A program made the translations under genes and the position numbers. Under the pieces are notes generated by a model. The model saw nothing but the letters and a program-made list of their open reading frames with translations. It was not told where the DNA came from and did not search any database. Positions 29,459 through 31,861 of a stretch of 64,000 bases of DNA are shown in pieces (within the stretch, counting starts at the first letter, position 1; each line of letters begins with the position of its first letter). Source of the DNA: Octopus vulgaris (taxonomy: Eukaryota); NCBI GenBank assembly GCA_951406725.2, contig OX597828.1, forward strand, positions 5,208,001 through 5,272,000. Reading direction: 5' to 3'.

Positions 29459-29834
29459 AGCAACGCCTTTAGTCGAGCACATCGACCCCAGAACTTATTC
29501 TTTTGTAAGCCTGGTACTTATTCTATCGGTCTCTTTTGCCGCACCGCTAAGTTACGGGGATGTAAACACACCAGCAACGGTTATCAAGAGATGTTGGAGG
29601 GACAAAAAGACACAAACATGCACGCACACGCACACGCACACGCACACGCACACACACACACACACACACACACACACACACACACACACACACACACACA
29701 CACATATATATATATACATATATACGACAGGCTTCTTTCAGTTTCCGTCTACCAAATCCACTCACAAGGCTTTGCCCAAGGTGCCACGCAGTGGGACTGA
29801 ACCCGGAACCATGTGGTTGGTAAGCAAGCTACTT
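29459..29834 (-). mobile_element. SINE family B body (3' part of a split copy)
   Basis: Highly similar to 16100-16440 apart from a short deletion; ends at GGTAAGCAAGCTACTT. Confidence 0.9.
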
Positions 29835-31822
29835 TATTTCATAAATTTGTCATATAGACAGTACAAAGAGCTTTGCGGGGTGGACAAATACATTAATGAA
29901 GGAAAATGAATTATAATGAATAAATGAGAGACGAAACCCAACACCCGCCGATTGGATTTTTCTCGAAAATATATTTTCTTTTCTTTTTTTTAATCAATAT
30001 GATGTTTCGAACCTCTTACAAGGAGAAGGCTCTAAAACCTCTTACTTAACATGTTTTCTTTTTTTTTTCTTTCTTCAAGCACAAAATTGAGGTTATAAAC
30101 CACTACAAAATAATCCAATAAGATGAGCTTTCAAATGCAGCTTAAGTTCCTGTATCCCACCATTTCCCATGCCTCACTCATGTAGGACATGTAAGTCGTG
30201 TAAGGGCCACCCGGCCATATGCGACACTCCTCCCCAAATCCTTTAAGCCTTTCCCACAAGGGAAACCTTATGACCTCCACAGCTATCTGCGGCGGCCATT
30301 CGAGATCCCGCGTGAAGGGCATATTTACTGTTTCTTTAAGTTCTTCTACTATTTTTCTACCTCCCCGCCCTTGTAGAAAAAGATAATTAATTGATCATCT
30401 TTAAGGGTGGGGGTGGTTTCTTCCACTGTGGGTGGCACAACTTCGGGACATGCAGTCGGCACATCATATCCCCGCTGAGATGACCCGTTCTTCTTCCTTC
30501 TTTTTTTTCTTTTCTTCCTGGCTTCGGGAGAGTGGAGCTCCTCCGCTTTGTCCGGTGACTCTTCCCCGCCTTCCGAAGCCTTAGGTTCCTTCGGCGGGCA
30601 AATATTGTTGCCCGCCTTCTTCCTTTTTAATCCTTTTTGAGTTGAAGAGGCTGAAGCCTCCTCGACCACATCCACTTTGACCGGGTAGGGGAGGTGGCAT
30701 CTAGTGACAGTTCCAGGACCTTACCATGGTCCTGGGGGTAGTTCCTTTTAATGTGGCCTGGCTGCAGGCACGAGTGACACTTTGGGGGACGTCCCTCAAG
30801 TATCACCGGATACCTGCAGCCAGCCATTTTCAAGAAGTCTGGAAAAACCAGTTCTGTTGCGGCCGATGGGGTCCATAGGGCCAAAATCGCTTTTGACCCT
30901 TCCCAATCGACCGCCGGCAATACTCTTACATTTAAGAGCCTGGGCCCGCCATCCCCCAGTCACCGTCGGATGGTATCTTCAATCCAATCCGCTTCGGTGC
31001 CCGGGGGAGCCCACATACCCATGCTCGTATTAATTTTCTTCCACAATATGACGGGAGAAATAGAATTTCCTTGCCTTCTAAAGGCTGACTCGAAAACTGG
31101 CGAGCCTTTTCCCGTTGTCAAACAGCAGCCATACGGTTGCATGTTTGACACTACGGGATATATATTTTACAGGGGACAAATGTTCTTTAAGTTAATTTTT
31201 TTATGACTTGTTTTGGGAAGACGGTGATGGAATTAAGAACCTTAGAATATGTTCTAAGTACCGTCGTCTTCTCCTCCATATCTTTTAACCATTGCTTAGG
31301 CGGGTTAATTTCCCACTCTAAGACAGAGTTTTTCTTTTTAAGTTCCTTCTCTGCCATGTCAAAAAACAGTTCAAAAGTAGTTCAAAAGACAGTCTGCCAA
31401 AAAATTAAACCGAATAAAATAAAACAAAATAAAAGAGGAGGGGAGGAAACCGAAATTAAAGTAATGAAAAGAATGAACCAAAATTTAGAAAGAAAGAAAA
31501 ATAGAAGAAGTGAAAAGTAAAAGAAAAACCTCACAAATAGCACACACAGGGAATCCTTTGTATAATACTCCAAAAAGGTAATCCAAAAGTTAATCCAAAT
31601 GGCTTATTCTTATTTTTCTGGCGAGATACGCCCACTAGTTTCACAAGAATAATTTTCAAAAAAATTCACATTTCACCGTTACGGTGATGAGAACCCAGTA
31701 TTTTGCTCACTATAGCTAGCCATAATTGACAATTTTTCTTTTTGGTCTTTTTTTACTGTTCGCGGAGCCGAAACTCATATCTGCTCACTGTAACAATCCA
31801 GACCAACTAGTGTTGCATTCTG
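29835..31822 (-). mobile_element. ORF1-only L1/Tx1-like (HAL1-like) retroelement with a 16-bp TSD
   Basis: TSD GGTAAGCAAGCTACTT (29819-29834) / GGTAAGCAAAGCTACTT (31823-31839). Has a 5'UTR, a broken gag/ORF1-like ORF with zinc knuckle, a 3'UTR and AATAAA spanning the 3' junction. No RT or EN sequence is recognisable. Confidence 0.8.
30131..31357 (-). pseudogene. ORF1/gag-like nucleic-acid-binding protein (frameshifted)
   Basis: ATG at 31357 (MAEKELKKKNSVLEWEINPPKQWLKDMEEKTTVLRTYSK), then YPVILEGRPPKCHSCLQPGHIKRNYP (CX2CX4HX4C with the last C as Y), a K/R-rich segment and a C-terminal piece at 30131-30322. Confidence 0.75.
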
Positions 31823-31861
31823 GGTAAGCAAAGCTACTTACCACACAGCCACTCCTGCGCC
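31823..31861 (-). mobile_element. SINE family B 5' head (displaced half of the 29459-29834 copy)
   Basis: gctacttaccacacagccactcctgcgcc is identical to 16432-16460. Confidence 0.9.

Follow-up and report, generated by a model that had tools for sequence, protein, structure and literature searches.

Why a SINE copy in Octopus vulgaris should be split one base past its A-box-like motif, and by what kind of element, is the question raised by the 64,000-nucleotide stretch of contig OX597828.1 analysed here (the window). It is very probable that the insert is a dead ORF1-only, L1-like copy lying at a fixed base of the SINE, where it was likely placed by target-primed reverse transcription carried out by the endonuclease and reverse transcriptase (RT) of an autonomous partner found at that base as well.

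The split SINE and its insert

The original prediction described a SINE split by an insert of about 1.99 kb, just 3' of the A-box, and the locus was found to be arranged in this way. Read along the minus strand, the SINE copy consists of its head (31861-31840), a target copy, an insert of 1,988 bases, a second target copy and the SINE body. An intact SINE is present at 16095-16460 of the window, with head and body contiguous, as they are when the site is empty. The features are the following.

31840..31861, minus strand, SINE head; 31 of 31 bases are the same as in the intact copy (16430-16460)
31851-31841, minus strand, A-box-like motif of the SINE head; the insertion lies 1 base 3' of it
31824..31839, minus strand, 5' copy of the 15-bp target plus one extra T
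31358..31823, minus strand, 5' UTR of the ORF1-only element; all 29 other copies start at this base
30134..31357, minus strand, broken ORF1; ATG at 31357, stop region deleted
about 30782-30741, minus strand, zinc knuckle in the broken ORF1
29835..30133, minus strand, 3' UTR of the insert; ends in AATA, without poly(A)
29848..29860, minus strand, 4-bp stem with a 5-base loop near the 3' end of the insert
29820..29834, minus strand, 3' copy of the 15-bp target; part of the original SINE
29455..29819, minus strand, SINE body; internal microsatellite, and a 31-bp deletion relative to the intact copy
29803-29793, minus strand, B-box-like motif in the SINE body
2294..2516, minus strand, 3' fragment of an element from a different family in this group, located at the corresponding base of a second SINE copy

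The A-box-like and B-box-like motifs were called by the consensus of each box. The target-like copy on the 5' side is a 17-nt stretch (31839-31823) that includes the extra T, and the target copy on the 3' side spans 16 nt (29834-29819); the first base of the element, C at 31823, coincides with target position 16. The second, 223-base fragment (2516-2294) adjoins a target copy at 2293-2278 and shows 78-80% identity to the tails of the ORF1-only elements L276, L289 and L286. No SINE head matching the fragment at 2278-2516 was found upstream of it within the window. On the 3' side of the stretch that corresponds to the intact SINE, the segment 29270-29455 is matched nowhere else in the window; it is possibly the tail of another SINE type.

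The single broken ORF with a CCHC-type knuckle that had been noted for the insert was recovered as well: a Pfam search of the window frames yielded only a weak zf-CCHC match (E 0.045, under the cut-off). The window ORF1 is interrupted by in-frame stops and by three or more frame changes, the last Cys of its zinc knuckle is replaced by Tyr, and about 67 bp around the ORF1 stop are missing relative to copy L095, in which ORF1 measures about 424 codons. ORF1 is composed of two predicted RRM-like domains, the zinc knuckle, a basic linker and a conserved C-terminal block. In a predicted model of the sister copy L100 (mean pLDDT 61.7), the knuckle is preceded by two beta-alpha-beta domains, and a fold search with this model returned generic ferredoxin/RRM-like matches (best Z 8.6), none standing clear; human L1 ORF1p was not among them. 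Atlas look-alikes of ORF1, which are leads only, comprise zf-CCHC, RRM and ZCCHC3-type RNA-binding domains, and the ORF1 homologue search gave one match, an uncharacterised Octopus sinensis protein (65%). None of 22 window-subfamily copies and none of 10 other ORF1-only copies has an intact ORF1.

Target site and junctions

Both ends of the element were searched in the genome. When the 201 bases at the 3' end of the insert, free of SINE sequence, were used as query, the best 40 of 426 candidates were scored and 30 were fetched; the 3' end lay at the target 15-mer in 28 of the 29 other copies and was followed by the SINE body in 27 and by a further element in one (L019). The sole off-target copy, L012, shares its first four bases with the target and has a 15-base duplication of its own. 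In the search from the other end, with 203 bases (best 40 of 173 candidates scored, 30 fetched), the 5' ends of all 29 other copies were at the target, preceded by a SINE head in 28 cases and by the tail of another element in one. A 22-base 5' motif has 74 exact matches in the genome, and the first 30 of these by position were all at the target. Random flanks, which the original prediction had named as evidence against a fixed site, were thus not seen in these searches, which took the best 40 of 173-486 candidates and under-sampled short or old copies. A non-LTR family is regarded as target-specific when one sequence type makes up more than 20% of its flanks (PMC4494074, in part); the proportions here were 28/29 and 29/29 for the 3' and 5' ends of the window family and 30/30 for the 3' ends of the autonomous partner described below.

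Exact empty sites for the two common target alleles number 33,405 and 31,566 in the whole genome, the latter being the allele with A at position 13 (49% of empty SINEs). Some 65,000 empty sites in 2.8 Gb correspond to a chance of roughly 1e-5 per random insertion, and with 28 of 29 copies on site the fixed position therefore cannot be attributed to chance. One exact filled-junction pattern had 374 matches, which sets a rough minimum of about 1% for the matching allele. The SINE head was also compared with 30 genomic tRNA loci in ungapped alignments (best z 3.3-3.9). The intact SINE gave no tRNA match in Rfam at E<=10 and no family above the cut-off, and the 15-base target was found, within 3 mismatches, in none of the same 30 loci, which are a part of the genome's tRNA set. 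A SINE head is itself apparently inserted at or near the same site within another SINE head at L040 and L198.

A target-site duplication of 16 bp had been predicted for the window copy. The actual duplication is 15 bp long, the 16th base being the element's own first C. The sister subfamily likewise duplicates 15 bases, followed by 11 that belong to the element itself (10/10 copies). Six copies lie in targets with G at position 16; the base at this position of their 5' copy is C in five (L093, L096, L097, L108 and L251) and T in the remaining one (L249). In the young autonomous partner described below, position 13 of the 5' copy is A in 20/20 full-length copies, including all 8 that have a T target, so that the far end of the 5' target copy is element-borne in this family. 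The ORF1-only elements L285 and L289, which occupy T-allele targets, also have A at position 13, and the truncated copies L019 and L155 duplicated the target's own variants instead. As SINE-head variants further upstream differ among the young partner copies and two copies have no head, the retained element-borne part of the target must be short.

One extra base is found in the 5' copy of 5/20 young partner copies, and in 3/20 it is the same T as in the window. An assembly error was rejected as the source of this T, since 19 empty SINEs carry it, against about 65,000 that do not. A variant at target position 11 was present in both duplicates of 8 copies, only in the 5' duplicate of 4, only in the 3' duplicate of 1 and in neither of 12; it is thus common to both duplicates (Fisher p 0.004), with incomplete concordance in the old window subfamily, 5/25 pairs being discordant. 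Several 5'-truncated copies are joined to a SINE head with duplications of 8 to 16 bases (L079, L087, L089, L090, L019 and L155), L131 shows a 2-base loss of target at the insertion, and tandem stacks occur at L126, L128, L129, L142/143, L195, L201, L202, L210 and L258. Judged from the sequences, the truncations, the target deletion, the off-target copy and the stacks are marks of target-primed reverse transcription.

The terminal AATAAA that had been read in the insert proved to be AATA from the element followed by AA from the target. No poly(A) tail was found, and in all 29 other copies a short AATA-type terminus abuts the flank directly. HAL1 and mammalian L1 elements have a poly(A) tail, a feature that the window family lacks. 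A terminal 4-bp hairpin followed by AATA is common to the ORF1-only and the autonomous families. In 28 tails, 94.6% of the stem cells are paired and three cells are changed on both sides, including that of the window family, which has a T-A pair where most families have C-G. This level of pairing was reached by 0/500 shuffles, although the hairpin has only 4 pairs and related sequences can beat the shuffles of this test. The shared hairpin would fit a 3' signal for the RT of the partner.

ORF1-only families and an autonomous partner

Similarity to ORF2 at E<0.01 was detected in 0/23 elements (the 22 fetched copies and the window copy), in agreement with the lack of RT and endonuclease noted earlier for the insert and contrary to the possibility, raised at the same time, that most copies carry ORF2. 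Twenty copies fetched whole measured 1,799-2,071 bases, and two more had internal deletions. When 20 further loci were extended to 6 kb, both ends were found in 14 (941-2,277 bases) and no 3' end could be mapped in 6; the sole ORF2 match in these loci belonged to a separate element stacked downstream of L258. The window family therefore resembles HAL1 in having ORF1 only, without ORF2.

Several of the first 30 filled junctions have RT-like frames upstream, and one of the loci, L111, contains a 5.44-kb element with ORF1 and ORF2 between SINE head and SINE body. Its ORF1 has a zf-CCHC match of 24.9 bits, and its ORF2 matches Exo_endo_phos (PF03372, 45 bits), RVT_1 (PF00078, 52 bits) and zf-RVT (PF13966, 37.6 bits), all over the cut-off and in the order N-terminal APE endonuclease, central RT and C-terminal zinc-binding motif. 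In copy L199, ORF2 is one frame of 1,150 codons. The nearest solved relative of this ORF2 is human L1 ORF2p (E 4e-67, vs 1e-19 for R2). The 3' end of the partner is identical in 31 places, and 30/30 fetched copies end at the same SINE base. Each of the 20 copies that were extended has its full or almost full length, and none of the 20 has both frames whole; pairwise identity in the family is 99.0%, in a best-match sampling that favours young copies. An APE+RT partner sharing the 3' tail had been predicted: it exists and uses the same base, but the shared part is limited to the last ~35 bases. Outside the terminal motif, the young partner and the window subfamily show no similarity in DNA at E<1e-5, and their ORF1s are 24% identical (E 3e-16).

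The APE-RT-zinc ORF2, the nucleic-acid-binding ORF1 upstream of it, the target-site duplications, the 5' truncations and the lack of LTRs are the features of the L1/Tx1 group. A homologue search with the longer ORF2 protein gave three unnamed matches. The RT region gave 717, and among the 120 listed, names were attached only to a protein of Argonauta hians (64%) and to one of Paramuricea; these 120 included no named Tx1 reference, and the Atlas names were generic. No RNA data set was listed among the sequencing runs with a match. Contigs of four sequencing runs with three organism labels cover the partner in pieces (presence only), and one of them spans its SINE-head junction. Older ORF2-bearing families occupy the same site at L113-L115, L283 and L298.

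When 40 consecutive filled sites were classified by us according to ORF1 and ORF2 similarity near the tail, 27 had ORF1 without ORF2, 3 had ORF2 and 10 had neither. The idea of a half-LINE family that parasitises a SINE is therefore supported, except that many ORF1-only families, and not one, are found at the site. The families sharing the base are 24-70% alike in ORF1. In an ORF1 tree of 36 sequences, from which rows of fewer than 140 residues were left out, 28 ORF1-only rows, among them the window copy, form one clade together with the Octopus sinensis protein (support 100/100). All four autonomous ORF1s and a second ORF1-only group of three, which is closer to the autonomous ORF1s (36-41% identity), fall outside this clade, by gaps that may be exaggerated because the rows were extracted with three different queries.

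Between ORF1-only families, dN/dS was 0.09-0.21 in 7/9 pairs, the other two being saturated at synonymous sites; two pairs with the sister subfamily gave 0.38-0.45, and four dead copies of one family 0.47-1.06. One reference copy was used, so that the pairs are not independent. With synonymous sites near saturation and dN/dS of about 0.1-0.2, the ORF1-only state looks old and ORF1 is under purifying selection; the ORF1-only elements are not fresh deletions. At a rate of 0.0036 per million years, taken from PMC13282606, the window subfamily (95.0% pairwise identity) would very roughly be 7 million years old and the partner less than about 1.5 million years. Because the young partner (~1% pairwise difference) is younger than the window subfamily (~5%), it is at most a candidate helper of the window subfamily itself. 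The SINE allele with A at position 13 hosts 3/28 window-subfamily copies, against 16/28 young partner copies, and may have spread after the activity of the window subfamily.

Proposed mode of insertion and related systems

We propose that the half element is mobilised in trans by the autonomous partner. The APE endonuclease of the partner would make two nicks, one in the bottom strand at one base beyond the A-box and one in the top strand 15 bases farther along, and its ORF2 protein would bind the RNAs of both elements at their 3' hairpin. The RNA of the half element would be packaged by the ORF1 protein that this element itself encodes and that would still be needed. Full-length RNAs would carry the last 3 to 7 target bases at their 5' end, and the cDNA would anneal to the cut target, with the element's allele winning near the joint. 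Such annealing could produce uniform 5' junctions and occasional one-base slips such as the extra T of the window copy. Each insertion would rebuild the target, behind which further elements could stack, and by parting the A-box from the B-box it would silence that SINE copy.

Full-length copies with uniform junctions, and a 5' target copy that in the young partner follows the element and not the target, could also be expected if one ancient insertion had given rise to a composite of head, insert and body, copied as a unit by the helper LINE of the SINE. However, the SINE bodies are far more diverse than the elements inside them (91.3% vs 99.0% identity for the young partner, n=23; 88.7% vs 95.0% for the window subfamily, n=21), and within one allele, diversity is about the same in filled bodies as in empty ones (94.5% vs 92.7%). 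The bodies also show the genome-wide allele mix, with A at position 13 in 16/28 as compared to 49% of the empty sites. Truncated copies attached to SINE heads come in many lengths, headless elements are located behind the tails of other elements (L195, L202, L230 and L234), and families with the above-mentioned range of ORF1 likeness use the same base. Copying as a unit is thereby largely refuted, and we consider it scarcely credible. It is also very unlikely that the site is chosen by tethering to the Pol III machinery, or by open chromatin at the SINE promoter, instead of by endonuclease recognition. The site does lie next to the A-box-like motif, at a distance of one base, and other retrotransposons reach Pol III genes by tethering (PMC5911963, in part), but insertions have occurred at rebuilt targets with no A-box upstream (L195, L202, L230, L234, L126 and L273), the off-target copy L012 shares its first four bases with the target, and target choice in such elements is credited mainly to the endonuclease (PMC4494074, in part).

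The origin of the ORF1-only elements has to be weighed in the same way. They could be recurrent internal deletions of autonomous elements, briefly amplified and with ORF1 as a passenger, as autonomous copies with internal deletions do exist (L147, L283 and L298), HAL1 arose independently several times in mammals (PMC5753468, in part) and the second ORF1-only group is nearer to the autonomous ORF1s. Against this stand the window ORF1 clade, which includes none of the four sampled autonomous ORF1s, and the near-saturated synonymous sites and low dN/dS within it; we regard recurrent deletion as quite unlikely. Mobilisation in trans of long-established ORF1-only elements is the reading that we retain. 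In a wider frame, octopods probably harbour a three-tier system of parasites, made up of an L1/Tx1-type lineage, still recently active, with an endonuclease specific for one base in the promoter of a dominant SINE, of an old ORF1-only radiation with a selected ORF1, which took over most sites, and of a 5' joining step that relies, as in R2, on target sequence borne by the element, part of the apparent duplication being then encoded by the element.

Target-specific LINEs of the Tx1 clade include Tx1 of Xenopus in Tx1D, Keno in U2, Kibi and Koshi in microsatellites, and, in crocodilians, Tx1-Mar in Mariner-N4_AMi with SINEU passengers and Tx1-9_AMi in Harbinger (PMC4494074, in part). Like the octopus system, they are of APE type, occupy a fixed place in a multicopy sequence, transposons included, and likely move non-autonomous passengers to the same place (PMC4494074, in part). 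The octopus target differs in being the tRNA-like head of a SINE, a kind of target that the available part of that paper does not name. In contrast to the Tx1 passengers, those of the octopus encode ORF1 and outnumber the autonomous elements (27 vs 3 of 40 sites). HAL1 is similar in being a non-autonomous L1-like element of about 2 kb with ORF1 only and target duplications (PMC5753468, in part). The octopus family differs from it by its strict site, the lack of poly(A), its RRM-like and CCHC-containing ORF1, which is only 24% identical to that of the sampled partner, and its mollusc host; it works like HAL1 and is not filed as one. Drosophila HeT-A belongs to a different LINE lineage from the octopus elements. 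It too is long-lived and without pol, shares its niche with the pol-encoding TART and TAHRE and forms head-to-tail arrays, but it adds to chromosome ends, whereas the octopus niche is a dispersed SINE, entered with a 15-bp duplication (PMC5537684, in part).

For R2, the RNA of which retains upstream 28S sequence, uniform 5' junctions come from cDNA-borne target sequence annealing to the target, as proposed here (PMC3774820, in part). R2 has a restriction-like endonuclease, an HDV-like ribozyme and an rDNA target; in the octopus elements, the element-borne stretch lies inside the duplicated target. By analogy, the octopus system appears to work as a HAL1-like passenger of a target-specific Tx1-type LINE, the clade label being provisional. 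Target-specific LINEs with passengers, HAL1 and HeT-A are kinds that have already been described; the SINE-head target combined with ORF1-encoding passengers is a new variant.

A curated repeat annotation of Octopus vulgaris from 2026 lists 80 families, among them 13 recently active L1-Tx1 families with 421 insertions, and neither its body nor a term search of its supplement yielded any mention of targets, nesting or ORF1-only forms (PMC13282606). L1-Tx1 is named only as an expanded family in the available part of PMC8967140, and the available parts of PMC4758252 and PMC8869645 contain nothing on SINE-targeted or ORF1-only elements. No published description of a SINE-targeting LINE or half-LINE in cephalopods was found; Repbase and Dfam were outside this search, and the system may already stand there, in Repbase Reports or in the Zenodo library of PMC13282606.

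The targets of sequence-specific APE retrotransposons are extended by this system to a dispersed SINE promoter with more than 65,000 landing sites, and a near-intact, base-precise APE+RT element becomes available for mechanistic study. As the SINE target alleles differ among copies, the genome records the strand source of each 5' junction base, in a poorly understood step of LINE integration; rDNA targets cannot reveal this source. Selection on ORF1 in elements without ORF2 makes it testable why half elements keep ORF1. The annotation of octopus repeats is also affected, as nested elements split SINE copies.

Some further variation was seen among the ORF1-only elements. The sister subfamily, with 15/30 of the motif-picked copies (L213, L214, L218-L222 and others), has 11 extra 5' bases that include an ETS-like motif, and the window subfamily looks like the product of a deletion between two short repeats that removed these 11 bases. 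At the 5' ends of the ORF1-only elements L118, L122, L125, L126, L272 and L285, a GCGCATGCG-like palindrome was found, which resembles an NRF1 site and is a possible internal Pol II promoter. L117 and L286 are 92-96% alike with L285 and L289 over ORF1 and 3' UTR and have unrelated first ~300 bases, which suggests a 5' UTR replacement; L117 and L286 themselves are 97.7% alike and represent a younger ORF1-only family. At L128:7598, a second-group ORF1-only element ends in a short tandem A-rich repeat tail, the only tail extension seen, and upstream, at L128:1688-3245, there is an unrelated RT frame of about 500 codons that appears by eye to be RTE-like.
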